Virus genome (UHGV): UHGV-0146833
DNA length: 40,525 nucleotides
From: a virus
Direction: 5' to 3' (one strand)
Positions 181 to 14,707 of this stretch are shown piece after piece (positions within the stretch are counted from its first letter, which is position 1; each line of letters starts with the position of its first letter). Made by a program: the position numbers and the translations under genes. The notes under the pieces were generated by a model, which was not told the DNA's origin, did no database searches, and was given only the letters and a program-made list of their open reading frames with translations.

Positions 181-2076
181 ATGAGCAAAGTAAAAATCGG
201 TGAATTAATAAACTCACTTGTTAGCGATGTTGAGTCAATAGATAACTCTGACCGTCCTCAAGGGGAAAAAACAAAAAAAATAAAAGCTGTTGCATTAAAA
301 TTTAAAAATGCATTATTTAATGACAAGCGAAAGTTTAGGGGGAAAGGATTAGAAAAAAGAATTACAGCCAACACATTCAATGCCTATATGAGCAGGGCCA
401 GAAAACGGTTTGATGATAAACTTCATCATAGCTTTGAAAAAAATATACATCGCCTATCTGAAAAGTATCCTTTATATAATGAGGAGCTATTGTCATGGCT
501 TTCTCTACCTGCTGCCGATATTCGCCAGAGAATGTCAGCTTTACAGGCAAAATTAAAATTAATTCTCCCTTTATCAGAAGATTTATCTAATATCAGAATT
601 GGTGATAACAAAAGTCATAATAAGTTATTAAAATTATCAAATAAATATAAAGAGTGGCAATTCGCCATTTCTGATTTAACTAGCGATAACTGGAAAGATA
701 AGCGCGATTATTTATATAAATTACTACAGCAAGGATCTGCCTTACTTGAGGAGTTGAATCAGCTAAAAGTTAACCATGAGATTCTCTATCATCTTCAACT
801 AAGCCCTGCCGAACGCGCATCTATCCAGCAACGATGGGCAGACGTTCTGCACAATAAGAAACGTAACGTGGTGGTCATTGATTACCCTAAATATATGCAA
901 GCTATTTACGATATTATAAATAGCCCTGCTACATTAAATAATCTAAACACTCGTTCAGGTATGGCTCCTTTGGCATTTGCACTTGCTGCATTGTCAGGAA
1001 GACGAATGATTGAGATTATGTATCAAGGTACATTCACTGTTTCTGGTAAGTATACCGTTGATTTTTTAGGCCAAGCTAAAAAAAGAACTTCTGATGATAT
1101 AACCAGAAAAATATATACATTATGCGAAGCGAAAACATTTGTTTATTTAATAAATGTACTTCGCTCATGCCCAGCAGCATCTGATTTTGATGATGTCGTT
1201 AAAGGTTATGGAGATAACGACACACGCTCTGAAAACGGACGTATTAATGCCATATTAGCAAAGGCTTTTAACCCGTGGGTTAAATCATTTTTCAAAGATG
1301 ACCGCCGTGTTTATAAAGATAGTCGTGCTATTTATGCCCGTATTGCGTATGAAATGTTTTTCCGCGTAGATCCTCGTTGGAAAAATGTAGATGAGGATGT
1401 TTTCTTTATGGAAATTTTAGGACATGACGATGAAAACACTCAATTACACTATAAGCAATTCAAGCTGGCCAACTTCTCAAAGACATGGAGGCCAAATACT
1501 GGAAACGAAAATACCAGGCTGGAAGCATTGCAGCAGCTTGATGACGAAATGCCTGGATTCGCCAGAGGAGATGCCGGGGTTCGTCTGCATAACACAGTTA
1601 AGCAGCTGGTAGAGCAGGACCCCTCTATAAAAATCACGAACAGCACTCTAAGAGCATTCAAATTTAGCCCAACAATGATTAGTCGATACCTGGAATTTGC
1701 TGCTGATGCTCTGGGGCAATTTGTTGGCGAAAATGGACAATGGCAGCTGAAAATAGATACTCCAGAAATCGTTATGCCTGACGAAGAAGAGCTGGAAGCA
1801 ATACCTGAACAGGTGGATGAATTATCAGAGGATGACGATCTGGATGACGACGAAATTGAGATAGAGGAAGAGATAGAGGAAGAGAGCATAGAAGAACAGC
1901 AACCGCCCGCGCCTTCTTCACCTGTATCTAAGCCGGTATTTAAGCCTGTGAGAAATATTGGTGATGGCTCATACGTTGTTGAGTTTCATTATAATGGCCA
2001 GAATTATGCTTGGTCCGGCAGTGCAAACAGCCCTATGTCAGCAATGCAGTTAGCATGGCTGACATATTTCGGATAA
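181..2076 (+). CDS. telN: Protelomerase (telomere resolvase) TelN
   Basis: 631 aa, same length as N15 TelN; near-colinear similarity to remembered N15 TelN over the whole protein (MSKVKIGELIN..., RDYLYKL, GRINAILAKAFNPWVKSFF, acidic C-terminal tract). RBS AGGAGAGGAAAG upstream. Confidence 0.92.
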   Translation: MSKVKIGELINSLVSDVESIDNSDRPQGEKTKKIKAVALKFKNALFNDKRKFRGKGLEKRITANTFNAYMSRARKRFDDKLHHSFEKNIHRLSEKYPLYNEELLSWLSLPAADIRQRMSALQAKLKLILPLSEDLSNIRIGDNKSHNKLLKLSNKYKEWQFAISDLTSDNWKDKRDYLYKLLQQGSALLEELNQLKVNHEILYHLQLSPAERASIQQRWADVLHNKKRNVVVIDYPKYMQAIYDIINSPATLNNLNTRSGMAPLAFALAALSGRRMIEIMYQGTFTVSGKYTVDFLGQAKKRTSDDITRKIYTLCEAKTFVYLINVLRSCPAASDFDDVVKGYGDNDTRSENGRINAILAKAFNPWVKSFFKDDRRVYKDSRAIYARIAYEMFFRVDPRWKNVDEDVFFMEILGHDDENTQLHYKQFKLANFSKTWRPNTGNENTRLEALQQLDDEMPGFARGDAGVRLHNTVKQLVEQDPSIKITNSTLRAFKFSPTMISRYLEFAADALGQFVGENGQWQLKIDTPEIVMPDEEELEAIPEQVDELSEDDDLDDDEIEIEEEIEEESIEEQQPPAPSSPVSKPVFKPVRNIGDGSYVVEFHYNGQNYAWSGSANSPMSAMQLAWLTYFG

Positions 2077-2248: not shown

Positions 2249-3031
2249 CTATTTATTGGTGATTTCTGCTGGCTTTAGCTGCGCGGACAACTGCTCAAGT
2301 TTTTGAACTGCCAGTTCAAAATGCGCGGGTAACGCCTTTTCCAGATCAGAGTTGATATCGGTGATGGGCAAATCACCACACGACATACTCCGCCTACCAC
2401 CACGAACAACATCACGCAACAACTCTCGTTCATACGTGCGCATGTTCCCCAATGCCGACTCAGCAGCCGTCAAAATCCGGCGCAGTTCTGCCGTAATTGC
2501 TGGCAAATCATCAACAGTTATGGGGTTCGGGGATGGATTACGACACGCCCGACGCAAAGCCAACCATACACCGCTAATCCAGGCATTTCGGTATTGAAAA
2601 CTTTGTGCAATATCGTTAATCAGCCCTCGCAGATACTCCTTCTGCCTCCAGTTCAACGGCTCCGCTGCTCGCATTGGCTCTGGCTCGACGTAAACGTACT
2701 CTCCATTTTTGCGAATAGAGGGCAAGACTTCGTTCGTTACCCATTTGCGAAACCGCCAAGCTGTTGTGCCTTGCTTCACCGCGTCACGGCAGCGGAGGAT
2801 CAGGGTGTATAGACCTGACTCTGAAATAATATTTAGCTTTTGCTCTCCGCCAGGGGTGTAACTTAAAGTTACACCCTTTTCATCCTCATCCAGAGACATT
2901 AGCGCCTTCCGGGAGTTAACGAGTCTTAAAGCATCACATACATCCTTAGCCACAAACCACGGCTCACCGTTAATCATCACTACACGAATCTGATGCTCTT
3001 CCTGAAACGAAAATACAGCTAACGCGCTCAT
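2249..3031 (-). CDS. Bro-N / KilA-N domain antirepressor-like protein (AntC-like position)
   Basis: N-terminal motif FQEEHQIRVVMINGEPWFVAKDVCDAL is typical of the Bro-N family; last gene of a three-gene coupled operon next to telN. Confidence 0.75.
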   Translation of the reverse strand: MSALAVFSFQEEHQIRVVMINGEPWFVAKDVCDALRLVNSRKALMSLDEDEKGVTLSYTPGGEQKLNIISESGLYTLILRCRDAVKQGTTAWRFRKWVTNEVLPSIRKNGEYVYVEPEPMRAAEPLNWRQKEYLRGLINDIAQSFQYRNAWISGVWLALRRACRNPSPNPITVDDLPAITAELRRILTAAESALGNMRTYERELLRDVVRGGRRSMSCGDLPITDINSDLEKALPAHFELAVQKLEQLSAQLKPAEITNK

Positions 3032-3261
3032 TTAGCCTCCTTATTGTGCTGCAATTGCGACGAGAGAGATGCTGAATACCCCTGTGCTTCGTGTGTTAGC
3101 TCACACGCAATTTGAAGGAGCTTCCCGGCTTCTGATAGATAAATCGACGCCTCACAGCTGGATACTGTCCGATGGGCTGATGACACGAGCGCATAGACCT
3201 GAGCCAGACGTTCATCCAACGACTCCAGCAGGCCAACAGTGTTCATTTTTACCTGATTCAT
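3028..3261 (-). CDS. Hypothetical 77-aa protein, middle gene of the antirepressor operon
   Basis: ORF in track; 4-bp overlaps with the ORFs on both sides (translational coupling). Confidence 0.55.
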   Translation of the reverse strand: MNQVKMNTVGLLESLDERLAQVYALVSSAHRTVSSCEASIYLSEAGKLLQIACELTHEAQGYSASLSSQLQHNKEAK

Positions 3262-3423: not shown

Positions 3424-3719
3424 GTATGCACTCCGTTTAATTGGTCGTGCTACCACCAGAGTTCTCACGCTCTTGAATGGTGGTAGCCCAAGCGGGGGTG
3501 AGAATACCGGCAAACGAAGAAACCGGCCTGACCGAAGTCAGCCCCGCCTGAGCCACCATAAATCGGATATGCGCAGGTATATACACACAAAAAAACACGC
3601 TGGCGCGTGTTGTGCGCTTCGTTTATCCGGGTTCTCACGCCCGGCTGCGGGATTTACCGCAGCGGAGTAACTTTACCGTCAAAACGACGCACACGTCAAT
3701 AATTTGCAAAGACATTTTA
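3424..3719 (-). promoter_or_regulatory. Structured non-coding leader upstream of the antirepressor operon; candidate promoter plus c4/CA-like regulatory RNA
   Basis: ~300 bp without a credible ORF; several inverted repeats (GCTACCACCA...TGGTGGTAGC; CTGCGG...CCGCAG; ACACGC...GCGTGT) and a repeated GTTCTCACGC motif. RNA assignment is by analogy with P1/N15 immunity regions, not shown. Confidence 0.25.
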
Positions 3720-3739
3720 CCCCGTGACCAGTCACGGGG
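3720..3739. repeat. Palindrome CCCCGTGAC-CA-GTCACGGGG (family CGTGAC-YR-GTCACG, copy 1 of 3)
   Basis: Read directly; 9+2+9 inverted repeat followed by a T-run on the plus strand. Confidence 0.7.
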
Positions 3740-3800
3740 ACAGGTGTTTTTATAGTTTGCTTGAACGAGTGATCAGAAGTTGATCGTTAATCAAAGGCCA

Positions 3801-4112
3801 TTACTGATTAAGAGATTGGAAATACCTAACTAACTTACCGGCATCATCACATTTTTCTTTATCTTCGTCCTTAACATAGCCGCGACAAAAGGCTGAATAA
3901 AATTTTGCATTTTCAGAAGCAAAAGCAGCCGTCGAAAGGAGCAACTCTTTGCATGACTCTTTTGATGCAGCATCGGGATTATTTTTACATGCAAGCTCCG
4001 CTGATGAGTTAATAACAGAAATGCTATCTTCCTGGGCATAAACCGCAGCAGAAAAGGCAAAACATAAAACAAAAATAAAACTCTTCACTTTATCTCCTGT
4101 AACAGTCATCAC
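3801..4112 (-). CDS. Small secreted Cys-containing protein (signal peptide, ~80-aa mature part)
   Basis: N-terminal hydrophobic stretch ending ...AVYA-QE typical of a Sec signal peptide; four Cys in mature part; AT-rich codon usage. Confidence 0.6.
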   Translation of the reverse strand: MMTVTGDKVKSFIFVLCFAFSAAVYAQEDSISVINSSAELACKNNPDAASKESCKELLLSTAAFASENAKFYSAFCRGYVKDEDKEKCDDAGKLVRYFQSLNQ

Positions 4113-4115
4113 AAT

Positions 4116-4523
4116 TCAATCAACTTCTTTAGCATCAGCCATACGATTCAACCAGGAATCAACAATCGGTTGCTCATCTACAGAATGTTTACTAGGTATA
4201 ACTCGCCAGCTATCTTGCGAAAATCTGCCGTACTTACGCGGGAATAGGCCTTTCTTTATCTCCCGCCATGTACTAGGAAAACCATCCACAAAAGTACCAA
4301 TTAACAGGAGAGGGACAAAAATCAGAGCTACAAACCATCGTGCAAGAAAGTGTTCAACAACAACATTTTCACCGTTGTAGTAATACGCATACGCATCCAA
4401 TATGCGAATTTTCCTTACCTTAAAAATAGCCTTATGCTGAGAACGACTTAACTTGATACGAATGTATCCCTTATCCAAAGGGGATTCGTATTTGTATGAT
4501 TGAACAGCCATTTTTAACCCCAC
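4116..4523 (-). CDS. Hypothetical single-pass membrane protein (135 aa)
   Basis: Central hydrophobic helix WFVALIFVPLLLIGTFV; stop abuts next start; AT-rich. Confidence 0.6.
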   Translation of the reverse strand: MGLKMAVQSYKYESPLDKGYIRIKLSRSQHKAIFKVRKIRILDAYAYYYNGENVVVEHFLARWFVALIFVPLLLIGTFVDGFPSTWREIKKGLFPRKYGRFSQDSWRVIPSKHSVDEQPIVDSWLNRMADAKEVD

Positions 4524-4843
4524 TCACCATCAGCAAACAAAGCGTTATACTCTGATAATGGTAAATGATGCCCCTCAATTGCCAGATTAAGCCCCAAATG
4601 GGTAGATGGGTGCTCCTTATCTGGCTCCTCCTCCCACAATTCAGAAGCTAAAGAAGCTAAACGCTCAGCCGCTTTCACGTAGTTTTCGGTCCTGAACCAA
4701 CCCAAATTAATCCCACCATCAGTAATCGCCCAGGCTACTTTCTTCTCTTCTTCCTGAATAGCCTTAATGCGTCGATCGCACTCATCCCGGCAGAACTTCA
4801 GCTGACGGTAATCAAGTGTGTCCAAAAATGCAGTAGTAGACAT
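4514..4843 (-). CDS. Hypothetical cytoplasmic protein (109 aa)
   Basis: Strong RBS GGGGAG upstream of ATG; overlaps downstream gene start; AT-rich. Confidence 0.6.
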   Translation of the reverse strand: MSTTAFLDTLDYRQLKFCRDECDRRIKAIQEEEKKVAWAITDGGINLGWFRTENYVKAAERLASLASELWEEEPDKEHPSTHLGLNLAIEGHHLPLSEYNALFADGEWG

Positions 4844-4847
4844 ATTT

Positions 4848-5039
4848 TTACTCCCCGTTCACCGAAAAATCACGATAGAAACGTTTCCACATACGATAAG
4901 TCTGCGCGAGTTGTTCACCACGAAACATCGCCTTCCTGGCCTTCATGTTTTCCTTGTGAGACTTTCGATCTATGAACCAAAACCATTGCTGGAACACACA
5001 AAGCAAGAGACACAAAGATAATATCCACTGATTACCCAT
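4848..5039 (-). CDS. Hypothetical small membrane protein (63 aa), start overlapping the repA stop
   Basis: Internal ATG of track ORF 4848..5156; N-terminal hydrophobic helix (WILSLCLLLCVFQQWFWF); 4 nt before next gene's start. Confidence 0.4.
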   Translation of the reverse strand: MGNQWILSLCLLLCVFQQWFWFIDRKSHKENMKARKAMFRGEQLAQTYRMWKRFYRDFSVNGE

Positions 5040-8000
5040 AGAAAGCGCCCTGCTCTTCGTAGCTGCATGAGCTATTCCCGGTAATGTATTCTCGTAACCG
5101 CCGCAGTTCATTGCTAGACAAGTGATCCATGAACTCTGTGAGGTACAGAGATGCAAACGTCATAGCTATGCTGGCTGATGACCATGATGACATAGTGGCC
5201 AGCTCCTCACCGGAAAGCGCACTCATCGCCCAGGACTCAGGAACAGCCACAGGCAATACAGCCAAAGCCTGTGATATAGCTGAACGAGGGGGATCCTGTT
5301 CCTCCGTGTTTGTGGATCGCGTTTCACCATTCATATATATATTTAATGACAAATCGCGATCCACTTCGGTCGTTGATTTTTCTGCCTTGCGAGCTTTCAA
5401 CGTCATACCGTCCTCCTGACGTTGCGCAAGAATATCAAGCATAAATGCTACAGACTCAGGCTCAACAAAACGCAATGTCGGGCGCTTATCGCCATCTCTG
5501 CCGCGACGTTTTCCTGTTTTTAGGCCGAGAGAGTCGCAGATGTTTTTAAACAGTGCTTCCGGCACTTTAGGCTTCCCTTTTGGTGTCATAAAACCACCAA
5601 TGCGCAGAACGTTATTCAACAGGTCACGGCGTTCTGCTGTCATGAGATTATCTCGAGCGAACTTAAGGCGTTCCTGCGTCGCTTCGCCGGTCATAGTTTC
5701 AGGGTCGATACCGCAGTCGATAAAGTACTGCCGGAGAGTTGCTGATTTAAGCGCATAGAATCCGCGCATGCCGACCTCAACAGCTGGGGTGGCTTTTACC
5801 TTGTAGTCGATTATTCCCGGAAATTTCGCTTTGAATACATCATCAGCCTGCTCGCGTGTCATCGCGGTCACCACAAAATATTGCCACTGTCCGGTCTGGC
5901 GATATGCGTATGTAAAATTGATAGCCGCTTCTTCACGGTCATAACGACGGGCAGTGACTTCATCAAGCAGCATCGTTTCATAACGGCGAATTTTGTCTCG
6001 AGCGCCATCGAAATAGAATTTCAGTGTGCCTTCTTCAACCGGTAATTTCAGTTCGTTCTCAATATCCCAGCGGACCAGTTTTGCCTGTTCTTCAAGCGTT
6101 AGCGCACGTTTTTTTAGTAGTTCTTCACGCTCTGATTCTTCTGGTGTCTCTGTATTGAGGTGCAGATCCAGCGTCTGTTCCCACACAATATCCCGCGCTT
6201 CTTTGCGCAGCTCTTTACCAAAATCGTTCGCGGCATAATCGGTAGCTAATGGTGATACCTTATAACCGTCGCTGTGCATGATGCAGATCATGTTGCTGGC
6301 GTAGTCGTTACGCGCAGACGCTTCAATTGCGGCTGCTTTAATTTTCATCCTGGTAAAGTCGGTATTGGCTACCCCCATTGATATACGGTCGCCATCGAAA
6401 ATGACATCCGTCAGTTCACCGTTCATGCCTGCGGTAGCAAGTAATGCCTGGGCGAATGCACGTTCTATTTTTTGCGGATCAGTCTCGCGTTTTGCACGGG
6501 CTTTATCAAAGCCAATAATAAATTCTTTTGCTGTACGGTCGCGGCGTAGCATTTGCACTGCGTCGCTGGGCACAACTTCACCGCAGAACATGCCGAAATG
6601 ACGGTCAAAATGTTTTTTCTCAAATGACACCCCGGAGGAAATCGACGGGCTGTAGATCAGTCCATCGTATTTCATCACCATTACTTTTGGCTGGCTGGTA
6701 AAGGCATCGACTTCTTCATCCTGTTTGCTTTTCTGGTTTACGCACAGAAATTTCTTGCCAGGGAAATGCATTCTCAGGGTGGCGGTCACATCTTCTGCAA
6801 AGGTGGAGCTGTCGGTGGCCAACATAATTTTTTCGCCATCCGATACAGCTTTCACCACCTCGGTCATGATGCGATCTTTTTCTGTATAAAAAACCCGGAT
6901 TGGCTCACCTGTTTCGCGGTTGCGAACATCAACAGGTAATTCAATTACGTGGATCTGCAGCCATGCCGGTAAACCTAGTTCTTCACGGCGTTTCATAGCC
7001 AGTTCAGCCAGGTCAACCAGCAGATCGTTCGCATCAGCATCCACCATGATTGGGTGTTGTTCCGTTCTGGCCAGCGCGTCAATTAACGTATTGAATACAG
7101 CCACCGGGTTTTCCATAGCCCGACCGGAAAGAACGGCACGTAGCCCTTGTGTTGCCTCGTCAAAGCCAAAATAGTCGTGCTGGCGCATCAACGGTTGCCA
7201 GCAGTTTTTAACAATCGAGTTTATGCAGATGGTCAGTTTACTGGCGTATGGAGCCATTTCCTGATAGCCAGGGTCCTGATAGTGCAGGATATCGGCTTTT
7301 ACACCTTTTCCTTCTGTCATCATTTCCCACAGGCCACCAATAAGGGAGACACGGTGAGCAACAGAGATACCACGTTCTGAGCTATGCATTAACGGTCGTA
7401 ACAATCCAGTAGATTTGCCGGAACCCATACCAGCACGGACGATGACTATCCCCTGTAGTGATTGCACGTACTTCAGGACATCATCGGTCATTACCGAAGT
7501 TTCAAAACGCTTATAGGTGATATGTTGAGGGCGTTTATTGGGATCAGTTATGCGTTCGCTGAAAGAGCGCGGAGCCTGGGCAATACGGCACTTTTTATTC
7601 AGGCGACGGGCAATGTGGTCTTTTACCGTAGCGCGATAGATATTTTCCAGTCCCATTTCACGCAGAACGATGCAGAACATGTTAAATAAATCTGACGGAC
7701 TGTTAGGAACCGGACAGGTTAGCATGCCAATATCCACCGCTCTCAGCAGCTCTTTGGCAAAAGTACGACGGTTATCCCGCTTAATTGTCTTCAGGCGGTT
7801 GAGCGTCAGAGATAGCAAATCAGTGCCGGTTTTCAGGCGGTTTGCTGTTGCGAATAGTTGACGTGCTGTTTCACGAAGTCCACGTAGTTTGTGCAGGTCG
7901 TTGAAGTCACTGCACTCCATTTGCGGATCGTCTTCAAAAGTTGGGTAGACGCAGCGGACATCGTTGAATTTAGATAAGATTTCATAGCCAGTCCGCAGGC

Positions 8001-9027
8001 CGGTATTCCCTTTTCCTTCTGTGGCTGATTTCCGGTCATTATCCAGTGCGCAGGTGATTTTTGCCGCTGGGTACATGTTTACCAGTTGTTCCACAACATG
8101 AACCATGTTGTTAGCGGATACAGCGACAACCACAGCGTCAAAGCGTTTATCTTTTTTCGTGGCAAGCCAGATGGATGCACCAGTAGCAAAACCTTCTGTA
8201 ACAGCGATGTTTTGCGCCCCTTTCAGCTCACCGATAACAAAGCAGGCACCGACGAAATCGCCGCTGGTTACTGCGGTGGTCTGGTATTTCCCACCTTGTT
8301 TGTCGATTCGCTGCCAACCCACAATACGACCATCGTAACGACCGTCCAGATGAGCCAGAGGGATAGCCATATATGTGGTTGGCCCCCGGCTCCATTTCGC
8401 ACTGTCGTGACTGGTCACGCGACGCACATCACACGAATTAAAAACGTCACGAATACCTTTTTTAATCGCATATGGCCATGAGCCGTCTTCTGCAGGAGCA
8501 TGTTCCCACGCGCTGTGGAATGCCAGCCATCCCAGCAAACGTTCATGGTCCATTTGGTTGTTTTTCAGGTCATTAATTCGTTTTTGTTCTTCACGGCGAC
8601 GACGTGCTTCGGCCTGACGTTCTATTCTTGCCCGTTCTTCTTCCGGTTGTGCGACCACGGTCGCATTATTCCGTTGTTGCTCACGGCGATATTCAGAAAA
8701 CAGGAAGGAGAAACCGCTCCATGAGCCAGCATCGCTGCCTTTATGGACGAAGTTAATGAACGGGTAATCAATCCCTTTGCTGTGTTCCAGCCTGGAGTAA
8801 ATTTCTACGCGTCCTTTCAGGCTCTTTTCGAGAGCTTCTGGAGATGTTTTATTGTATGAAGAGTAACGCTCAACCCCCCCACGAGGGTTGAGTTGGATGT
8901 TGTCGGAACAGGCAGGCCAGTTGATACCAGCCATTTGTGCCAGCTCGGTTAGTTCATCCCGTGCTGCTTCAATTAGCGAGAACGGATCGCTGCCAAAGCG
9001 ATCCGCATAGAAATCGTTTAATGTCAT
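5032..9027 (-). CDS. repA: Replication protein RepA (primase-helicase multidomain, N15 RepA-like)
   Basis: 1331 aa (N15 RepA is about 1324 aa by recollection); Walker A-like GMGSGKST in the C-terminal half; position between the telN side and cB as in N15. Confidence 0.85.
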   Translation of the reverse strand: MTLNDFYADRFGSDPFSLIEAARDELTELAQMAGINWPACSDNIQLNPRGGVERYSSYNKTSPEALEKSLKGRVEIYSRLEHSKGIDYPFINFVHKGSDAGSWSGFSFLFSEYRREQQRNNATVVAQPEEERARIERQAEARRRREEQKRINDLKNNQMDHERLLGWLAFHSAWEHAPAEDGSWPYAIKKGIRDVFNSCDVRRVTSHDSAKWSRGPTTYMAIPLAHLDGRYDGRIVGWQRIDKQGGKYQTTAVTSGDFVGACFVIGELKGAQNIAVTEGFATGASIWLATKKDKRFDAVVVAVSANNMVHVVEQLVNMYPAAKITCALDNDRKSATEGKGNTGLRTGYEILSKFNDVRCVYPTFEDDPQMECSDFNDLHKLRGLRETARQLFATANRLKTGTDLLSLTLNRLKTIKRDNRRTFAKELLRAVDIGMLTCPVPNSPSDLFNMFCIVLREMGLENIYRATVKDHIARRLNKKCRIAQAPRSFSERITDPNKRPQHITYKRFETSVMTDDVLKYVQSLQGIVIVRAGMGSGKSTGLLRPLMHSSERGISVAHRVSLIGGLWEMMTEGKGVKADILHYQDPGYQEMAPYASKLTICINSIVKNCWQPLMRQHDYFGFDEATQGLRAVLSGRAMENPVAVFNTLIDALARTEQHPIMVDADANDLLVDLAELAMKRREELGLPAWLQIHVIELPVDVRNRETGEPIRVFYTEKDRIMTEVVKAVSDGEKIMLATDSSTFAEDVTATLRMHFPGKKFLCVNQKSKQDEEVDAFTSQPKVMVMKYDGLIYSPSISSGVSFEKKHFDRHFGMFCGEVVPSDAVQMLRRDRTAKEFIIGFDKARAKRETDPQKIERAFAQALLATAGMNGELTDVIFDGDRISMGVANTDFTRMKIKAAAIEASARNDYASNMICIMHSDGYKVSPLATDYAANDFGKELRKEARDIVWEQTLDLHLNTETPEESEREELLKKRALTLEEQAKLVRWDIENELKLPVEEGTLKFYFDGARDKIRRYETMLLDEVTARRYDREEAAINFTYAYRQTGQWQYFVVTAMTREQADDVFKAKFPGIIDYKVKATPAVEVGMRGFYALKSATLRQYFIDCGIDPETMTGEATQERLKFARDNLMTAERRDLLNNVLRIGGFMTPKGKPKVPEALFKNICDSLGLKTGKRRGRDGDKRPTLRFVEPESVAFMLDILAQRQEDGMTLKARKAEKSTTEVDRDLSLNIYMNGETRSTNTEEQDPPRSAISQALAVLPVAVPESWAMSALSGEELATMSSWSSASIAMTFASLYLTEFMDHLSSNELRRLREYITGNSSCSYEEQGAFYG
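8406..8419. repeat. Palindrome CGTGAC-TG-GTCACG inside repA (copy 2 of 3)
   Basis: Read directly. Confidence 0.7.
8650..8665. repeat. Palindrome TGCGACC-AC-GGTCGCA inside repA (centromere-like family, copy 1 of 6)
   Basis: Read directly; resembles the F-plasmid sopC inverted repeat (TGGGACCACGGTCCCA as I recall). Confidence 0.7.
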
Positions 9028-9078
9028 TTTTTAGCCATTCCATGCGAATTATGTTTTTTCGGGTTGAAAAAATCCGCA

Positions 9079-9140
9079 GGAGCAGCCACAATAAACGCAT
9101 CTTGAATTGACGGAATCCGTCGCGTTGTTGTGGCTGCTTC
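9079..9140. promoter_or_regulatory. Long-range inverted repeat (GGAGCAGCCACAA ... TTGTGGCTGCTTCC) upstream of repA; candidate repA promoter/operator or regulatory RNA structure
   Basis: 13-bp arms separated by ~35 bp containing a nested AACGC...GCGTT repeat; lies 50-110 bp upstream of the repA start. Confidence 0.3.
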
Positions 9141-9150
9141 CTGAAAAGGA

Positions 9151-9178
9151 CCCGAGTTTGCCGACTCGGGTTTTTTTT
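9151..9178 (+). terminator. Rho-independent terminator-like hairpin (CCCGAGT-TTGCC-GACTCGGG) plus T8, between cB and repA
   Basis: 8-bp GC-rich stem followed by TTTTTTTT on the plus strand, antisense to cB/repA; the minus-strand reading has a weaker U-tract. Confidence 0.5.
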
Positions 9179-9272
9179 CGTCTTTTTTCTGCTGCTGTAA
9201 CCTGAGTCAACCCACAGAACATATGCCCTGCATTAAACCAGATTTACAGCAAACAATAAACCCCGTATTAAG

Positions 9273-9869
9273 TCATCTACCCTCAACCATGAATGATTTG
9301 ATCGTTCCGACTATTTGGTGAACAAATTCAAGATCGCTTTTCCTGAAGATGGCGCGTTGTGAATTTGTTCCGTCCAAATAGTAATTTTCATCATCAAAAC
9401 GGGCCAGGCGCTGGATGGTGATATTTCCTGCAGTATCACGAACCAGAACATCCTCGCCGGGAACCAGTTCCAGCGCAGAATCGACCAGGAGAAAATCGCC
9501 TGGCTGATAGTTTCCCTGCGTCAGATTGCTGATAGTTAACGCATAAACAGTATTGCGCTGGCTGATGAATGGCAGGAATCGCTCAGTATTTGGAACCTGT
9601 CCTGGCTTCCACTCTTCATCAGGTCCACTTTCAGTTGTGCCAATAACAGGAATGCGATCAGGGTCATATTCTGTCCCATACAGCACCCAATGCACTGGCT
9701 TTCGTAAGCACTTAGCCAGGGCAATACCTATCTCCAGTGACGGCATTACGTCGCCACGTTCTAAGTTTTGGACGCCTGCAATAGAGATATCGACAGCCTC
9801 AGCAACTTCTCGCAACGTCAGCTTCATCTCTAAACGGCGTGCTTTCAGTCGTTCGCCTCGTGTTTTCAT
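9273..9869 (-). CDS. cB: Prophage repressor CB (CI-like: N-terminal HTH, C-terminal S24 peptidase-like domain)
   Basis: 198 aa; HTH segment LTLREVAEAVDISIAGVQNLERG; C-terminal LexA/CI-like fold; divergent from cro with operators between. Confidence 0.85.
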   Translation of the reverse strand: MKTRGERLKARRLEMKLTLREVAEAVDISIAGVQNLERGDVMPSLEIGIALAKCLRKPVHWVLYGTEYDPDRIPVIGTTESGPDEEWKPGQVPNTERFLPFISQRNTVYALTISNLTQGNYQPGDFLLVDSALELVPGEDVLVRDTAGNITIQRLARFDDENYYLDGTNSQRAIFRKSDLEFVHQIVGTIKSFMVEGR

Positions 9870-9891
9870 AGCTTAATCATAAATGATCTTC

Positions 9892-9933
9892 TTATAGCTG
9901 GCTATAAAATTTATTTATTATAGCTAGCTTTAA
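9892..9933. promoter_or_regulatory. Repressor operators in the cB-cro intergenic region: TTATAGC-TG-GCTATAA (9892-9907) and TTATAGC-TA-GCTTTAA (9918-9933); TATAAT at 9949-9954
   Basis: Two 16-bp palindromic sites read directly between divergent cB and cro. Confidence 0.7.
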
Positions 9934-9960
9934 ATGTGATTTATTGCTTATAATAACCGC

Positions 9961-10182
9961 ATGAAACCAGAAGAACTTATTCGCCACTTTGGCAGTGTAG
10001 AAAAAGCAGCGGCTGGGGTAGGTGTAACACCCGGTGCTGTTTACCAATGGTTAACCGCTGGAGAGATTCCTTCATTGCGGCAAAGTGATATTGAAGTTCG
10101 TACTGCTTACAAGCTGAAGAGTGACTTTACAACTCGGCGGGTAAAGCAGTCGATTAAGGAGAGCCGTAAGCGTGGAGCTTGA
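9961..10182 (+). CDS. cro: Cro-like HTH regulator
   Basis: 73 aa, HTH GVGVTPGAVYQWLTAGEIP; divergent from repressor. Confidence 0.8.
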   Translation: MKPEELIRHFGSVEKAAAGVGVTPGAVYQWLTAGEIPSLRQSDIEVRTAYKLKSDFTTRRVKQSIKESRKRGA

Positions 10183-10882
10183 GTATATACGCAGCTGCGT
10201 CTCTACGGCATTGGCTGATGTTCATTATCGCCAGCGTGGCATTCTGGAGGTCCAGCTTGAGCAGATGCGTCTCGGTAGATCAGGACGGTTTAACAATAAA
10301 CCAGTCCGGTTAATCAGTGTGGGGGATGATAACTCATACGAAGTGTCCGTTCCTGCTGAGCCGGTTAGATTCCACCAGGGGAAAACATTTAAACAATCAT
10401 CAATGTTGCTCACTGATATTGATTTTCAGAGCGCCAGCTGGCGCAGGGCTATTGGTCAGTTGAATAACGAGGAATCAGCCTGGCTTTATTATTGCTACGG
10501 ATGCAAGCCTGATTACAACAATGATGTGATTGTTTGTCAGTGGTTATGGCTTGATTTTCTGGTTGCTCATTCGGGGGGCGGCTTTAAAAAAATGAAGGCC
10601 TCCACGAAAAAAGCCATGCGGAAATTGATTTATTACGCGGCACAGCAGGTTAAATCAGAACTTACGTGTGCTGAGGCAGTTGATGAGAGAGAACAGGACA
10701 GGCATCTGAGTTTTCTACTGAATATATCTATTGATAGCTGGAGACAAGATTATAAAGAACGCTGGCTTTTAATTAAGTCGCGATGTCTGAGCTTAAATCG
10801 AACTGCATTATTAAATGCGGCGGAGAAGCGCAGTGAAATCATCAAACGCCATCGGGCAGGAAGTGCCATTCTGCCTTTGTAA
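10172..10882 (+). CDS. Hypothetical 236-aa protein; candidate late-gene antiterminator (Q-like) by position after cro
   Basis: GTG start with AAGGAG RBS, overlaps cro end; Cys cluster YYCYGC...C. Function inferred from N15 gene order only. Confidence 0.55.
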   Translation: MELEYIRSCVSTALADVHYRQRGILEVQLEQMRLGRSGRFNNKPVRLISVGDDNSYEVSVPAEPVRFHQGKTFKQSSMLLTDIDFQSASWRRAIGQLNNEESAWLYYCYGCKPDYNNDVIVCQWLWLDFLVAHSGGGFKKMKASTKKAMRKLIYYAAQQVKSELTCAEAVDEREQDRHLSFLLNISIDSWRQDYKERWLLIKSRCLSLNRTALLNAAEKRSEIIKRHRAGSAILPL

Positions 10883-10889
10883 ACAAGTT

Positions 10890-11135
10890 ATGTTCAGGAA
10901 ACCGTCGAAGCCAGAATTAAGATATTCGGGGGTAAGAAATGAATATGTTATCTGGTGTCCAACTTGTGGTTACAGGACACGACCAGATAGTAATAAGCAG
11001 TCTGTAATTGCCGATTGGTATTTATCAAATCAGCCAGGTAATAAGCATATAGAAAATCTTTGGATTAAGCGTTACTTGGAAATCAGCGAGGGTGCGACCG
11101 TGGTCGCACAAGAAAATGAAAATAACGCCATTTAA
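10890..11135 (+). CDS. Hypothetical small protein with CPTCG motif (81 aa)
   Basis: Internal ATG of track ORF 10815..11135, chosen because it follows the stop of the upstream gene. Confidence 0.45.
   Translation: MFRKPSKPELRYSGVRNEYVIWCPTCGYRTRPDSNKQSVIADWYLSNQPGNKHIENLWIKRYLEISEGATVVAQENENNAI
11093..11108. repeat. Palindrome TGCGACC-GT-GGTCGCA (centromere-like family, copy 2 of 6)
   Basis: Read directly; sits ~8 bp upstream of the next ATG. Confidence 0.7.
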
Positions 11136-11319
11136 GCAGGGGCCGATGACGCATGATGAAGCAGAGCGTCTTTCAGATACTTATCGGCGGCGTGGTAAGA
11201 AAGTTCTGGTTGTTCGTTCTGATTTTTTAGGTGATGGATATTGCGTTTATGTTCATTTACCTGAATCAGAAAGAGCGCCAAAACCATCCAGAACATATCA
11301 ACAGAAAATTTGGGTATAG
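11116..11319 (+). CDS. Hypothetical protein (67 aa)
   Basis: ATG downstream of palindrome; ORF in track (extended form 11092..11319). Confidence 0.45.
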   Translation: MKITPFKQGPMTHDEAERLSDTYRRRGKKVLVVRSDFLGDGYCVYVHLPESERAPKPSRTYQQKIWV

Positions 11320-11342
11320 ATAAACGTTGAGGAGAATTATTC

Positions 11343-11942
11343 GTGACTAATCAGATTATTTACGACAGGAAACGGTCTGATGTAATGATCGACCTTGAAA
11401 CAATGGGTACTAACACATGTGCTCCAATTGTTTCTATCGGGGCAGTGTTTTTTTCTCCAGAAAGTGAGGAATTAGGTCCTACTTTTTATGTGCCAGTGAA
11501 TCTCAGAAGCTCGATGTTGAATGGTGGTGTCGCCGATGGTGATACCATTTTATGGTGGTTGAAACAGAGCAAGGAAGCCAGTGCCGCAATTTGTACTAAT
11601 GATGCCCTTGATATTAAGGATGCACTTTTTGAATTATCACACTTTATTACTTGCCATGCATGTAATTTAAAAAAATTGAAAGTATGGGGAAATGGAGCAA
11701 CATTCGACAATGTAATTTTACGCGGTGCTTATGAGCGCGTTGGCTTAGCCTGTCCGTGGGAATATTTTAATGATCAGGATGTTCGAACAATCGTTAATCT
11801 TGGTCAGTTTATTGGTTTCAATCCTAAAAAAGATATGCCATTTGATGGCGAACGACACAATGCCCTGGCTGATGCTATTCATCAGGCTAAGTATGTATCC
11901 GCAATTTTCTCCCGTCTCATAAAAGGGAAAGGAGAATCGTAA
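11343..11942 (+). CDS. 3'-5' exonuclease, DEDDh (DnaQ-like) family
   Basis: Exo I motif MIDLETMG near N-terminus and Exo III-like HNALADA near C-terminus; GAGGAG RBS. Confidence 0.7.
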   Translation: MTNQIIYDRKRSDVMIDLETMGTNTCAPIVSIGAVFFSPESEELGPTFYVPVNLRSSMLNGGVADGDTILWWLKQSKEASAAICTNDALDIKDALFELSHFITCHACNLKKLKVWGNGATFDNVILRGAYERVGLACPWEYFNDQDVRTIVNLGQFIGFNPKKDMPFDGERHNALADAIHQAKYVSAIFSRLIKGKGES

Positions 11943-12361
11943 TGGCAAAAGTTTTTACACCAGAACAGCGTGAAGAACTGAAGAAACAAATTGTGGAACT
12001 CGTGCGCCTGAATGGGCGAGGAACGGTTAGGCAACTGGCAGATGAAATTAGTATTAGCCGATGTGCTGTTAATCGTTTATCCAGAGAGCTTGCCACCAGT
12101 GGTGATTTGTATATCTCTGGCTCCGGGATATTTCTGTCTGCACAAGCACGCAAGGACTGGCAAAAAGCCCGTAAAAAACTATCAAGAGTAAAGCCGAAGA
12201 CATCGGTAGTGGTTGATCCAGACCTTATCTGGTCATTACCTGACGGAGAAATACGTCGTTACGACAGGCGCTTGAACATGATTTGTCACGATTGCCGGAA
12301 AAGTGAAGTTATGCAGCGTGTGCTGGCTTTTTATCAGGGAAATTTTCAGGAGGTGGCGTAG
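11942..12361 (+). CDS. Hypothetical protein with winged-helix-like segment (139 aa)
   Basis: ATG overlaps upstream stop; segment TVRQLADEISISRCAVNRLSREL resembles an HTH. Confidence 0.55.
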   Translation: MAKVFTPEQREELKKQIVELVRLNGRGTVRQLADEISISRCAVNRLSRELATSGDLYISGSGIFLSAQARKDWQKARKKLSRVKPKTSVVVDPDLIWSLPDGEIRRYDRRLNMICHDCRKSEVMQRVLAFYQGNFQEVA

Positions 12362-12651
12362 TGAATATCGACACCACGATAACGATCGATACGGCCCTAA
12401 ATATCGGTCTGGCACTTCTCGGTTGGTTTTACATCATGTTCAGTGCGGGGAAGTGGGCGGCCTCTGTTTTTCTAAAGCAGTGGGGAAAGCACCGCAAACA
12501 GGAAAGACGCCAGAAAGTGTTAGAGGCGTTATATGACGCATTTGAACTTAGCCGCATTGAGCCAGGCACAACAGCCAAGATAGCGACAAAAGGTGACATG
12601 ATGATAGTGATGTTCCGACAGGAGAGAGCAGAGAAAGGGGAATCAGCATGA
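12361..12651 (+). CDS. Hypothetical small membrane protein (96 aa)
   Basis: GTG start overlapping upstream stop; N-terminal hydrophobic helix LNIGLALLGWFYIMF. Confidence 0.5.
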   Translation: MNIDTTITIDTALNIGLALLGWFYIMFSAGKWAASVFLKQWGKHRKQERRQKVLEALYDAFELSRIEPGTTAKIATKGDMMIVMFRQERAEKGESA

Positions 12652-13322
12652 AATTTTCCAAATTTTCTGAGTTGGTGAATCGTATTTTGTCCAACAACCA
12701 CAGCCATCGTCGCGATATGGATGTAACAATCGTTATTCATTCGCCTGGCAGCATTGGTTCAACACCTTCAGTTGAGGTTCAGTCAATTCACGCTGGTTTT
12801 GATTGGGATTCCGGGAAAGTGCTTATTTTCCCAGCACAGCCACTGACCACGCTAACACCAGAACAGATTACTGATATTACTGATAGTGTGCGCAAAGGTC
12901 AGTCTTGGCACGCATATCAGGAATACAAGAAGCATCAAGAGCAGTTGGAAAAATTGTCGATTGAACTGGATGCTGCAAAACAGCGCGTAGCAGAACTGGA
13001 GGCCAGTCGCGTGACGCTGGCGGAGGAGAACTCGTGGCTGAAGATGCTCATAGAAGATCATGCTGGTTGTACTGCTGTCTGCCCAAATTGCTCTCATGAA
13101 GAACCCAGTGAAACAGACGACATTGTTTGGTCTTACCGTTCACGGGAAACGCCAGCCACCGATGCTTTCCTGGCTGAAGTCCGGGCGCAGGGATTGGAGA
13201 TGTTTGCACAGAAATGTAACTCAAAATCCGAACAGTCGCTTGCATCTGATATACGCGATAACTGGAAACTACTCGGTGAGCATGCGACTGACTTTGCCGC
13301 AGAGCTTCGCAAAGGAGAGTGA
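12648..13322 (+). CDS. Hypothetical protein with coiled coil and CPNC zinc-ribbon-like motif (224 aa)
   Basis: ATGA overlap with upstream gene; coiled-coil segment QEQLEKLSIELDAAKQRVAELEASR; CxxC. Confidence 0.6.
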   Translation: MKFSKFSELVNRILSNNHSHRRDMDVTIVIHSPGSIGSTPSVEVQSIHAGFDWDSGKVLIFPAQPLTTLTPEQITDITDSVRKGQSWHAYQEYKKHQEQLEKLSIELDAAKQRVAELEASRVTLAEENSWLKMLIEDHAGCTAVCPNCSHEEPSETDDIVWSYRSRETPATDAFLAEVRAQGLEMFAQKCNSKSEQSLASDIRDNWKLLGEHATDFAAELRKGE

Positions 13323-13323
13323 T

Positions 13324-13818
13324 ATGACCACTATTACCAGAGAACAGGCTAAGAAAATTATTGAAGCAGCCGACGATGTTATTAGTGCGCTGGCCGGAAC
13401 TAACGAGGATGTTCACCCAGGTAGCGATAACATGCTACGTCTGTGGGATGACCTGAATGACCGTTACGCGCCGCCGGAAATTGTGCGGGAACTGGCACGA
13501 ATTGCACTGGCATCGCTGGAAGCAGAACCGGTGGCATGGCTGCATTCAGACAATGGCTTAGGTATTCCGGCAATAACCCGGAGTAAAAACATTGCTGACA
13601 GTTGGTTATCAAAGGGCTGGTATGTTCAGTCGCTATATGTAGCCCAGCCACTGCCGGTGGTGCCGGATGATAATCGTATTCAGTTTTCTGTTTCACTTCC
13701 TGCAGCGTTTGGTGGAGATAAATATTTTATTGATGGTGTATTTCAACCTTTGAGATATGAGCGTGACTGTGAAAAAGCGGTTGTGGCCGCTGGCGGTGTA
13801 GTTAATTGGGTTAAGTAA
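13324..13818 (+). CDS. Hypothetical protein (164 aa)
   Basis: ATG 1 nt after upstream stop; internal M of track ORF 13060..13818. Confidence 0.55.
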   Translation: MTTITREQAKKIIEAADDVISALAGTNEDVHPGSDNMLRLWDDLNDRYAPPEIVRELARIALASLEAEPVAWLHSDNGLGIPAITRSKNIADSWLSKGWYVQSLYVAQPLPVVPDDNRIQFSVSLPAAFGGDKYFIDGVFQPLRYERDCEKAVVAAGGVVNWVK

Positions 13819-13833
13819 TTTTCAGGAGGATTT

Positions 13834-14160
13834 ATGGCTCTGACACCGGCAGAACGGCAAAGGAGACGCAGGGAACGGTTGAAGAAGGAAGGCACATCAA
13901 GACGGGACTGGATTTTGGAGCCTGACGAGTTACGTATGTTGGGGGAAATTTGTGTATTGCGTAGACCAGGGCGAGTTCCATATTCGGAGAACGAAGTCAT
14001 CGGCCTTCTGATCAGGAAAAACTATAAGGAGTTGCAGAAGCAGCTATCTACTACTTGTCCGCGATGTGGTCAAAAAATGTCTGTTTCAGAATGCATTTTT
14101 GATGGCGAAGGCTCATGCCACCTTACAACCACGAGGCTGAAACTTGCGCTCAAAGCGTGA
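13834..14160 (+). CDS. Hypothetical Arg-rich protein with CPRCG motif (108 aa)
   Basis: AGGAGG RBS; basic N-terminus RQRRRRERLKK. Confidence 0.55.
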   Translation: MALTPAERQRRRRERLKKEGTSRRDWILEPDELRMLGEICVLRRPGRVPYSENEVIGLLIRKNYKELQKQLSTTCPRCGQKMSVSECIFDGEGSCHLTTTRLKLALKA

Positions 14161-14169
14161 CTGGTCACG
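14156..14169. repeat. Palindrome CGTGAC-TG-GTCACG (copy 3 of 3), overlapping the stop codon of the upstream gene
   Basis: Read directly. Confidence 0.7.
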
Positions 14170-14178
14170 GAGGGATAA

Positions 14179-14421
14179 ATGGATAAAAAGGCATTGCTTT
14201 TTGAAATGATACGAAAACGGAGCGAAAAGAGCTTTTCTGATGGTGGTGATGGGTTTGTTTTCGCTTCTATGCTTGCTTTTGATGTTGGGTTAAATAGCAG
14301 AATTGTTAAAAGGATGCTTGATTCTGCTGTCCGTACTGGACTTCTTGAGAAAGTTGATCGTGGCATAGGGAGAGAGCATAAGTATCGGGCCACACAGCAG
14401 TTTTTGCAGTTAATACATTGA
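14179..14421 (+). CDS. Hypothetical protein (80 aa), possible winged-helix fold
   Basis: ORF in track; GGAGGG RBS. Confidence 0.5.
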   Translation: MDKKALLFEMIRKRSEKSFSDGGDGFVFASMLAFDVGLNSRIVKRMLDSAVRTGLLEKVDRGIGREHKYRATQQFLQLIH

Positions 14422-14503
14422 AAATTGACCGTAAAGTTTGAGTTTTCCCCTGTAATTTTATACAGTATAAATAACCTTTTTTAGTTAAATGGTATGAGAT
14501 TTA

Positions 14504-14707
14504 ATGTCTGAAGCAGCCGTATCAACTCTTGAACAACTCGATTCAAATTTAAGAGATATTGACGCCGTTCTGGATCTGGTTAGCGTCACCCTGGCTTCTC
14601 CAGAAGCCAGCCTACATATTGGTGAGGTTTCACGGCTCATCAACATGTCGCGAGAGATTGCCCAGCATTGTCAGAAAACTATCGCTGTTGAGCGTTCACA
14701 TCATTGA
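14504..14707 (+). CDS. Hypothetical protein (67 aa)
   Basis: ORF in track; preceded by an AT-rich promoter-like gap. Confidence 0.4.
   Translation: MSEAAVSTLEQLDSNLRDIDAVLDLVSVTLASPEASLHIGEVSRLINMSREIAQHCQKTIAVERSHH

Follow-up and report, generated by a model that had tools for sequence, protein, structure and literature searches.

What is the role of a short palindrome that occurs three times, spread over 10 kb, in a phage-plasmid related to N15? The stretch analysed, referred to here as the window, is the 40,525-bp virus genome UHGV-0146833. N15 serves as the model for linear phage-plasmids. Its circuits for lysis/lysogeny and copy number, comprising CB, Cro, Q, the CA RNA, AntC/LexA and SopAB, are regarded as reasonably well mapped. 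A first-pass annotation of the window had proposed that the palindromes are a second class of partition site, an operator for a regulator yet to be named, or a replication-related element. The evidence below favours the operator and speaks against the other two. Text searches, whose scope left out key N15, phiKO2 and PY54 papers, returned no published description of the motif or of phage regulators that join a ribbon-helix-helix (RHH) to a zinc ribbon.

Three palindromes and their conservation

An exact search of the window for CGTGACNNGTCACG (CGTGAC-NN-GTCACG) gives exactly three matches, at the places first described, and none of 100 dinucleotide-preserving shuffles of the window yields any (chance expectation 0). 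The palindrome is thus far commoner than expected. All three sites are one 14-mer: site 1 (3723–3736; CGTGACCAGTCACG, CA centre) is the reverse complement of site 2 (8406–8419) and site 3 (14156–14169), which both read CGTGACTGGTCACG with a TG centre. At site 1 the palindrome is longer and, as noted earlier, extends over 3720–3739, where it reads CCCCGTGACCAGTCACGGGG. Allowing one mismatch in the GTGACNNGTCAC core adds a single match, which indicates that the window holds no more good copies. The whole N15 genome also contains exactly three copies, and in N15, phiKO2 and 44 IMG/VR repA loci the three copies lie at the matching three places (3/3), so that sequence and position are both conserved among relatives; together with the frequency, this decides the refuting conditions set in the first-pass annotation in favour of a function. 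When sites are compared across phages, the 5-bp arms never change, the centre is unconstrained (TG, GG, AT, CT, GT, AC, GC) and the outer Y/R base of each half varies independently of the other half. This pattern is consistent with recognition by a symmetric DNA-binding dimer.

Site 2 lies inside repA (5032–9027, minus strand in the ORF list; 1331 aa), as the first-pass annotation had it. It is 608 nt from the start of the gene, within its first sixth, and covers the codons R-V-T-S-H-D. On the sense strand of repA, 27 nt from site 2, the sequence CGTGAC (8446–8451) may be an additional half-site; the R-D codons it covers do not vary in any lineage shown. The window RepA is 75% identical to that of N15, and all repA relatives have site 2 at identical codons. 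Among 148 amino-acid-conserved six-codon windows, drawn from 35 distinct repA sequences, the six codons of site 2 have the lowest synonymous-codon entropy (0.031 bits); the runner-up among non-overlapping windows has 0.29 bits. The repA-internal copy is under selection at the nucleotide level, and the three palindromes are real, conserved DNA sites under DNA-level selection.

Site 1 falls in non-coding leader sequence of the immA/antirepressor operon, which is on the minus strand. In an alignment of 24 distinct related sequences, its 12-bp core is invariant while the flanks vary, and it sits between two conserved promoter-like elements. The upstream one, a conserved, -10-like TATAAA (3749–3754, minus strand), is missed by a simple promoter scan and is for this reason treated as an inferred promoter; the centre of site 1 would be at about +12 of its transcript. 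The second element (3670–3699, minus strand; TTGACG, 18-nt spacer, TAAAGT) is supported by the scan and by conservation. Transcription predicted from it begins exactly where an isrK-like RNA has its 5′ end, as set by the start of the Rfam model, and site 1 is centred at about -66 relative to it. Downstream of site 1 are the leader RNAs of the antirepressor operon, namely this isrK-like RNA (3590–3663; 64.1 bits) and a C4 antisense RNA (3476–3563; 82.2 bits), both on the minus strand and above the Rfam gathering scores. A role for site 1 as a terminator was rejected: no U-run directly follows the stem (the T-run beyond it begins 7 nt away), the scan makes no call and the extension is not conserved. 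The GC-rich hairpin with a direct U-run that defines an intrinsic terminator is absent, and no terminator-like call was made at any of the three sites.

Site 3 overlaps a stop codon, as had been reported: it holds the TGA of a gene related to N15 gp46 (13834–14160, plus strand). It also adjoins the Shine-Dalgarno sequence of the next gene, the gp47-like ORF at 14179–14421 (plus strand; weak winged-helix hints), and ends 9 nt before the ATG. This arrangement is the same in N15 (39268) and phiKO2. Further downstream, in the same orientation, are a perfect LexA box (14450–14465) and a small antC-like antirepressor ORF (14504–14707). At neither site 2 nor site 3 did the promoter scan find a sigma-70 promoter-like element, and a repressor bound there would thus need to work as a roadblock. 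Operators of other repressors were compared with the three sites and set aside: the sites do not match the LexA box (CTGT-N8-ACAG), and they are unrelated in sequence to the CB/Cro operators (N15 34056–34094 and 34729–34793), which are AT-rich 16-bp palindromes of the TATA type located upstream of repA and in the interval from cB to cro.

A candidate binder and its pairing with the motif

The gene that ends inside site 3 encodes a 108-aa gp46 homolog (phrog_536) with an N-terminal basic helix, an RHH core and a C-terminal Cys-rich, zinc-ribbon-like region. Its AlphaFold monomer model has the strand-helix-helix fold of Arc/MetJ/CopG-type proteins and matches RHH DNA binders, to which the Cys-rich region is an addition; the N-terminus, PAERQRRRRERLKK, is predicted to be a basic, arginine-rich helix. 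A word-indexed protein search with the window protein retrieves close relatives only, and the distant homologs were found by tblastn against phage records. The family comprises 234 clusters at 50% identity and has no Pfam model. The window protein reaches no Pfam threshold: PF10723 (RepB/CopB) at E ≤ 5 matches neither it nor seven other members, and a precomputed PF10723 match exists for 3 of 12 Vibrio homologs. No informative result came from PDB sequence searches, from a BFVD fold search or from PADLOC.

Homologs of gp46 with 30–40% identity are found in epsilon15-like, ZF40, P2-like, Mu-like and Vibrio phages, and all are accompanied by GTGAC-NN-GTCAC, usually in two or three copies. One copy often coincides with, or lies close to, the 3′ end of the homolog's own gene, and many distant homologs likewise have their stop TGA embedded in GTGAC. 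Thus, epsilon15 has three sites, one of them on the stop of its gp46 homolog gp49; ZF40 has three, one lying 3 bp past the homolog's stop; and TL-2011b has one, on the stop. Vibrio K233 has three sites and a P2-like Yersinia phage one, while a Mu-like prophage (two sites) and a lambdoid/Mu hybrid (three) each carry one inside the homolog's own gene. The motif is present at all 41 IMG/VR loci that encode 36–41%-identical homologs, with 68 sites in 709 kb versus 0.68 expected. PY54 has neither the gp46 gene nor the motif, yet it does have gp47.

Among eight window proteins tested, only gp46 is a consistent companion of the motif beyond the N15 group, at 46 of 47 loci; the protein of ORF 13060–13818 matched three loci, and gp47 matched PY54 alone. 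As gp47 is present in motif-less PY54 and missing from other motif-bearing phages, it was rejected as the binder. In the reverse direction, at least 120 IMG/VR stretches hold CGTGACATGTCACG, and 24 of these have a gp46 homolog, within 25 bp in 12 cases. A composition-matched control palindrome occurs in 27 stretches, none with a gp46 homolog. The pair of gp46-family protein and site recurs in many unrelated temperate phages. Judged from sequence and the structural model, the gp46-like RHH protein is most likely the binder of the three palindromes. Since motif and protein co-occur across phages and are absent together in PY54, the sites are best read as operators of this candidate regulator, which would act by repression or roadblock; we put the probability of this reading at roughly 60%.

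The same distribution bears on the proposal that the palindromes form a second class of centromere or belong to the origin of the N15-type replicon. They are dispersed like the SopB sites of N15, are equally short with a 2-bp centre, and share the replicon with them; one member of each family is in repA, where site 2 is 245 bp from a SopB-type site. The families are nevertheless distinct, as first recognised, and differ in arm sequence, copy number and proposed binding protein. The SopB-type sequence, GCGACC-NN-GGTCGC, makes up a family apart, complete in itself (8651, 11094, 15984, 18994 and 19214), and a search for GGGACCNNGGTCCC with two mismatches does not recover the CGTGAC sites. Unlike SopB sites, the CGTGAC family is not limited to plasmid-prophages. 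The suggestion of a partition site is unsupported because epsilon15, ZF40, P2-like and Mu-like phages carry the protein-motif pair without plasmid partition; the integrating and transposing phages among the carriers have neither sop nor repA. A replication element fares no better: motif-bearing phages exist without a RepA-type replicon, and PY54, with sop homologs and a RepA homolog (49% identity), has no site. The N15-type origin we take to lie in the 3′ part of repA. Site 2 falls within the opening sixth of repA; the sole repeats annotated in the N15 repA record (GenBank U63085) are near its 3′ end. A partition or origin function is, accordingly, scarcely credible.

Half-sites GTGAC and GTCAC are identical to those of matS, the 13-bp site with the consensus GTGACRNYGTCAC, so the phage-plasmid might instead use the palindromes to recruit MatP, the Ter-macrodomain protein of the host. 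All hosts seen belong to Enterobacterales or Vibrio, which are MatP-containing groups. The spacer, however, is 3 bp in matS and 2 bp in each of more than 150 phage sites, including all three in the window, and variants with spacers of 3 or 1 bp were each met only once. The motif tracks the phage gene rather than the host, and PY54 has no motif although its Yersinia host presumably has MatP. The gp46 family has no sequence similarity to MatP, which has a four-helix bundle and a coiled coil whereas the gp46-like protein has a Cys-rich tail. Recruitment of MatP is therefore highly unlikely. A more speculative thought is that the shared half-site reflects an interplay with host MatP.

Possible modes of action

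The sign and mechanism of regulation by the gp46-like protein are what we infer from the placement of gene and sites. The gene is at the end of the rightward early cluster, and for this reason the protein would be expected after infection or induction and not in the lysogen. It is absent from the NAR688 lysogen proteome, which is weak evidence on timing because small proteins are often missed. (The "gp46" listed in that proteome is the CB repressor in that paper's numbering.) A dimer would bind each YGTGAC-NN-GTCACR site, one subunit per half-site. The protein would then occupy site 1, at about +12 of the upstream element and -66 of the isrK/C4 RNA promoter; site 2, 608 bp into repA; and site 3, which covers the gene's own stop codon and precedes gp47 and the antC-like gene under LexA control. 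Transcriptional repression is the likeliest effect: initiation or clearance would be blocked at site 1, and at sites 2 and 3 the bound protein would be a roadblock to elongation. In this way, expression of the antirepressor genes and of repA would be lowered after the early programme has run. Two observations sit uneasily with a repressor: an operator at the regulator's own 3′ end is unusual for a classical repressor, and the use of a repA block in lytic growth is not obvious.

Action on RNA is a distinctly improbable alternative, in which the palindrome would form a transcript hairpin, bound by the arginine-rich N-terminal helix, that controls how the next cistron is translated or how well a nearby terminator works. 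It is kept in view by that predicted basic helix and by the many sites outside the N15 group that lie in intercistronic junctions, transcribed in the sense orientation, immediately 5′ of a Shine-Dalgarno/start codon or an intrinsic terminator. At such junctions, SD-ATG follows by 10–28 nt or the ATG is in the palindrome centre; in epsilon15 an intrinsic terminator comes after all three sites; and site 3 of the window abuts the gp47 SD. The predicted fold, however, is that of a double-stranded-DNA-binding RHH protein, and a stem of just 5 bp would close a 4-nt loop. Sites 2 and 3 fold no better than shuffled sequence (z = +1.0 and -0.6), and only site 1 of the window folds better, through a CCCC/GGGG extension missing in N15 and phiKO2. 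Moreover, the arms are sequence-invariant and never covary, the outermost pair is broken on sense strands (C..A) without compensation, and repA mRNA reads CA at site 2 where sites 1 and 3 read UG. Pairing of the CA/C4 RNA with repA mRNA through the palindrome was also considered, as site 1 and site 2 RNAs are perfectly complementary. It was dropped because any palindrome gives such complementarity and the motif tracks the protein in phages that have no C4 RNA.

An architectural role, in which the protein would bridge dispersed sites, possibly via its Cys-rich C-terminus, and so loop or organise phage DNA, is likewise improbable. Higher-order oligomerisation is unsupported, site 1 is placed with respect to a promoter-like element as a classic operator would be, and looping would bring no clear benefit across Mu-like, P2-like and podoviral genomes alike.

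Beyond the operator reading, it is possible, although unlikely, that the gp46 family and GTGAC-NN-GTCAC make up a widespread, undescribed temperate-phage module that works away from promoters, on elongating RNA polymerase. The last early product would bind a few intragenic or intercistronic sites, always with one at the end of its own gene, and would be either a programmed roadblock/terminator or a DNA-loaded factor that alters read-through of adjacent terminators. The order stop codon, site, terminator in epsilon15 hints at the latter. Such a module would fix the point at which early gives way to late expression, in siphoviral, podoviral, myoviral and Mu-like phages alike.

For N15 itself, the operator reading would mean that three conserved sites, matched by a candidate cognate regulator, bear on the antirepressor operon, on repA and on the gp47-antC region. 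If correct, it adds a missing regulator to the N15 circuit and makes that circuit open to direct tests with a single small protein and a 14-bp site. It also proposes a specific DNA target for an uncharacterised protein family of many enterobacterial and vibrio temperate phages. The N15-derived linear cloning vector pJAZZ carries repA (PMC2847241) and so presumably site 2.

Comparison with CopB, Arc and Mnt

CopB (RepA2) of the IncFII plasmid R1, a PF10723 RepB/CopB RHH protein, resembles gp46 in having a basic N-terminal segment followed by the RHH. Its operator directly follows copB and governs an internal promoter that serves the next gene, and this placement recalls the site at the 3′ end of the gp46-like gene. 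CopB has a single operator and no Cys-rich C-terminal region; the window protein is below every Pfam threshold, and site 3 has no promoter-like element.

Arc and Mnt of P22 are RHH repressors of the antirepressor gene ant in immI. Like the proposed gp46-like regulator, they are small phage RHH proteins with short palindromic operators, although no sequence relationship is detectable. The gp46 family differs from them in its extra basic N-terminal helix and Cys-rich C-terminal region and in its presence in phages with no ant gene near the sites. Its sites in the window are also spread over 10 kb, with one intragenic and one on the regulator's own stop. Two of the three window sites closely precede antirepressor genes (immA operon; gp47-antC), and for this reason a shut-off of ant expression comparable to that by Arc and Mnt is proposed.

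Three identical palindromes in an N15-type genome

The window represents an N15-type linear phage-plasmid and starts near the left telomere. Among database records, it is nearest to those of Escherichia phages PhiR46_1 (95.8% over 94% of a 12-kb query) and YDC107_1, and DNA identity to N15 is about 76%. It encodes telN (181–2076, plus strand), repA (5032–9027, minus strand) and a rightward early gene cluster at about 9.9 to 14.7 kb, which includes the gene for a homolog of N15 gp46 (13834–14160, plus strand; hereafter the gp46-like protein).

A search with CGTGACNNGTCACG returned exactly three matches, at 3723, 8406 and 14156 (sites 1, 2 and 3), and none in 100 shuffles, in agreement with the count of three in the first-pass annotation. 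They are one identical 14-mer, with a plus-strand centre of CA in copy 1 and TG in copies 2 and 3. The earlier descriptions of individual copies were also borne out: copy 1 is lengthened to a 20-bp palindrome, copy 2 lies within repA, and copy 3 overlaps a stop codon. This is the TGA of the gp46-like ORF, and the copy ends 9 nt before the following ATG. The family is, as had been proposed, distinct from the centromere-like palindromes of SopB type. These read GCGACC-NN-GGTCGC and are present in 5–6 copies in the window (8651, 11094, 15984, 18994 and 19214, plus 20997 with one arm changed) versus four in N15. Two of them, at 18994 and 19214, are just 220 bp apart.

The positions are conserved among relatives. 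The whole N15 genome has exactly three copies in the same relative places (between genes 33 and 32, in repA and at the gene 46 stop), and phiKO2 has the same three sites. In 44 IMG/VR loci collected through RepA (75–98% protein identity), the sites are found at the expected places wherever the sequence extends that far. Here, the 5-bp arms are intact, and only the centre or the outermost base differs. Where a few contigs show a fourth copy, it is site 1 mirrored across an assembled hairpin telomere. The motif is absent from PY54, a more distant telomere phage whose RepA homolog is 49% identical; PY54 also lacks a homolog of the gp46-like ORF that ends in site 3 and keeps a gp47 homolog.

Site 1 (3723–3736) is part of the leader of the antirepressor (immA) operon, which is on the minus strand. 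Downstream of the site are an isrK-like RNA (3663 to 3590; Rfam, 64 bits) and, directly 3′, a C4 antisense RNA (3563 to 3476; Rfam, 82 bits), both on the minus strand. Together, these form the small-RNA leader of an N15-type antirepressor operon (3476–3663), and the isrK part has a good intrinsic terminator at its end (3594–3611). Alignment of 24 distinct relatives revealed two conserved, promoter-like elements on the minus strand, with site 1 between them. The upstream element has TATAAA at 3754–3749, preceded by a CTGATCAG-GTT-CTGATCAG repeat; the downstream element is TTGACG, an 18-nt spacer and TAAAGT (3699–3670), and transcription from it is predicted to begin at the first base of the isrK model. 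Relative to the upstream element, the centre of site 1 is at about +12, a placing like that of lac O1; relative to the downstream element, it is at about −66. The repeat, a pair of palindromes with GATC in each, covers the −35 region of the upstream element and is conserved; in N15 it is at about 28590–28608, and in the window it is degenerate (about 3769–3786, GTGATCAGAAGTTGATCG). Possible roles for it are a second operator and a Dam-sensitive promoter element. The nearby minus-strand ORF 3801–4112 matches only PHROGs of unknown function (phrog_26765), and its PhiR46_1 homolog is annotated as "Spackle exclusion protein".

Site 2 (8406–8419) is 608 nt into repA, and no promoter-like element was found near it. 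Its codons, CGC GTG ACC AGT CAC GAC, are the same in all lineages, whereas adjoining codons vary synonymously. In a comparison of 35 distinct repA sequences over 148 six-codon windows with fully conserved amino acids, site 2 had the lowest synonymous-codon entropy (0.031 bits, with 0.29 for the next non-overlapping window), so selection acts on the DNA or RNA sequence itself. An isolated half-site, CGTGAC, is present 27 nt from site 2 at 8446–8451 (repA sense strand, codons Arg-Asp), and its synonymous positions are invariant across all repA lineages displayed.

Site 3 (14156–14169) is between the gp46-like stop and the SD of the gp47-like gene (14179–14421). Further downstream are a perfect LexA box, CTGTAATTTTATACAG (14450–14465), and a small antC-like ORF of 67 aa (14504–14707). 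This ORF and the gp31-like ORF of the immA operon (3028–3261) are paralogs, and both match phrog_6301 and phrog_10889, "anti-repressor". The antC-like ORF shares 56% identity with an ORF at N15 39619–39807, which is unannotated in RefSeq and which we take to be antC. Sites 1 and 3 thus precede antirepressor genes, and site 2 is in the replication gene.

A candidate partner protein for the palindrome

The palindromes had been proposed to be a second class of partition site, an operator for an unassigned regulator or a replication-related element. The operator reading is supported and has gained a candidate; pairing of the sites with the gp46-like protein is well supported. Using tblastn against phage records, homologs with 30–40% identity were identified in unrelated phages, and GTGAC-NN-GTCAC is present in every one of these that was examined. 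In epsilon15, GTGACATGTCAC is found three times, once on the stop codon of its homolog, gp49; ZF40 has three sites, one beginning 3 bp past the gp22 stop; and TL-2011b has one, on the gp20 stop. There are three sites in Vibrio phage K233, one in a P2-like Yersinia phage, two in a Mu-like Vibrio prophage and three in a lambdoid/Mu hybrid, with one site of each of the last two being within the homolog's own gene.

Further support came from searches in both directions. Starting from the protein, the motif was found no more than 10 kb away in all 41 IMG/VR loci whose homologs share 36–41% identity with the window protein (68 sites in 709 kb versus 0.68 expected). A site is on or adjoining the stop codon in 16 of the 41 and in the last ~50 nt of the gene in five more. 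Starting from the DNA, the exact 14-mer CGTGACATGTCACG matches at least 120 IMG/VR stretches; among the matches listed, a homolog is encoded in the stretch in 24 and is no more than 25 bp away in 12. A control palindrome of the same composition with permuted arms matched 27 stretches, none with a homolog. Outside the N15 group, gp46 is the only one of eight window proteins that consistently co-occurs with the motif (46/47 loci); in the same 47 loci, ORF 13060–13818 matched three and gp47 matched only PY54.

The other two readings did not survive. The module occurs in integrating, P2-like and Mu-like phages, and PY54 has sop and repA homologs without a site, which argues against a partition site and an origin element alike. 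Binding by host MatP was suggested by matching half-sites, but the conserved phage sites all have a 2-bp spacer, whereas that of matS is 3 bp, and the distribution of the motif is tied to that of the phage gene. Reading sites 1–3 as terminators, LexA sites or CB operators fails on sequence.

In most phages examined, the gp46-family gene is the last or near-last early gene before middle or late functions, the P2-like Yersinia phage being an exception. In the Mu-like Vibrio prophage and the lambdoid/Mu hybrid (loci L283/L284), it is at the end of the early region, before gemA-mor and before a Mor homolog, respectively; one site of the Mu-like prophage is inside the transposase A gene.

The gp46-like protein and the nature of its proposed target

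The 108-aa protein matches phrog_536, "transcriptional regulator" (1.3e-30), and none of the Pfam and NCBIfam models; a precomputed PF10723 hit exists for three Vibrio homologs, and we take this model to be the RepB/CopB ribbon-helix-helix (RHH) family. In the family alignment, a basic N-terminal segment, PAERKRxQRxR, precedes a strand-like segment, LxLxLD, and a pair of helices, ELEML..C..RRPGR.PY..EYI..LIRQD. In the C-terminal part, Cys75, Cys78 and Cys95 are invariant and Cys87 is less conserved. An AlphaFold model built from a 40-sequence alignment (pLDDT 82.8) has helices at 5–19, 30–42, 52–71 and 96–104 and two knuckles at 74–95. A sequence search of solved structures found none related. 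A full HMMER search yielded 234 representative clusters at 50% identity; among the 150 of these listed, most are 100–135 aa and match the profile over almost its full length, so this is a compact, uncharacterised family.

We favour duplex DNA, bound by a predicted symmetric dimer, as the target. The modelled fold would be that of a duplex-DNA binder, and the arms are invariant across proteins sharing only about 30% identity, whereas covariation would be expected of an RNA stem. In addition, the centre is free (TG, GG, AT, CT, GT, AC, GC) and the outer Y and R bases vary independently in each half: C..G, T..A, T..G and C..A are all found, C..A also on sense strands. Finally, RNA folding of sites 2 and 3 is no better than that of shuffles; only site 1 of the window beats them, via an extension absent from N15 and phiKO2.

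Other features point the other way and leave action of the protein on RNA at the palindromes as an improbable rival: its N-terminus is an arginine-rich helix and, outside the N15 group, many sites are in sense-transcribed gene junctions. Some of these sites have an SD-ATG 10–28 nt downstream and in others the ATG of the next gene is the palindrome centre. The junction bias could also simply be a matter of space, short intergenic gaps being where a 14-bp palindrome fits in a compact genome. Each of the three epsilon15 sites (2142, 19517 and 39612, one on the minus strand) comes after a gene's stop codon and before an intrinsic terminator in the local direction of transcription, which hints at a link of the protein to termination or read-through in that lineage.

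In one phage group (L099, at 9735 and 17704, and the similar loci L102, L106, L109, L121 and L122), an ORF of 63–113 codons starts at the ATG in the middle of GTGACATGTCAC, or a start codon follows 10–16 nt later; the two translated L099 ORFs begin M-S-R. In the −3 class, the upstream gene ends at the left-arm TGA, and the palindrome therefore doubles as a stop/start junction.

A proposed role and its counterparts

In the lysogen, the rightward early cluster of N15 is repressed by CB, and the gp46-like protein would be made after infection or induction. Faintly in keeping with this timing, nine phage proteins alone were detected in lysogens of the related Klebsiella phage NAR688, the gp46-like protein not being among them (PMC12042878). 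As to the sign and mode of regulation, we infer that a dimer would bind the three operators and lower transcription. Bound at site 1, it would block the upstream immA promoter; a dimer on site 2 or 3 may act as a roadblock to elongation, for distal repA and for read-through into gp47-antC, respectively. That it serves to bridge DNA is unlikely.

The accessible literature, which did not reach older N15 and phiKO2 papers, gave no account of the family, its target or the site arrangement. RHH repressors with palindromic operators are well known as a kind. As far as that literature shows, what is new is an RHH family with a Cys-rich tail and without a Pfam model, its constant 12–14-bp target, and the placing of one site at its own 3′ end and one or two dispersed, in very different phage types. 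The proposed job would be like that of P22 Arc, which shuts off antirepressor synthesis once it is unneeded, and the placing of a putative operator just after its own gene, as at site 3, is reminiscent of that for CopB of plasmid R1.
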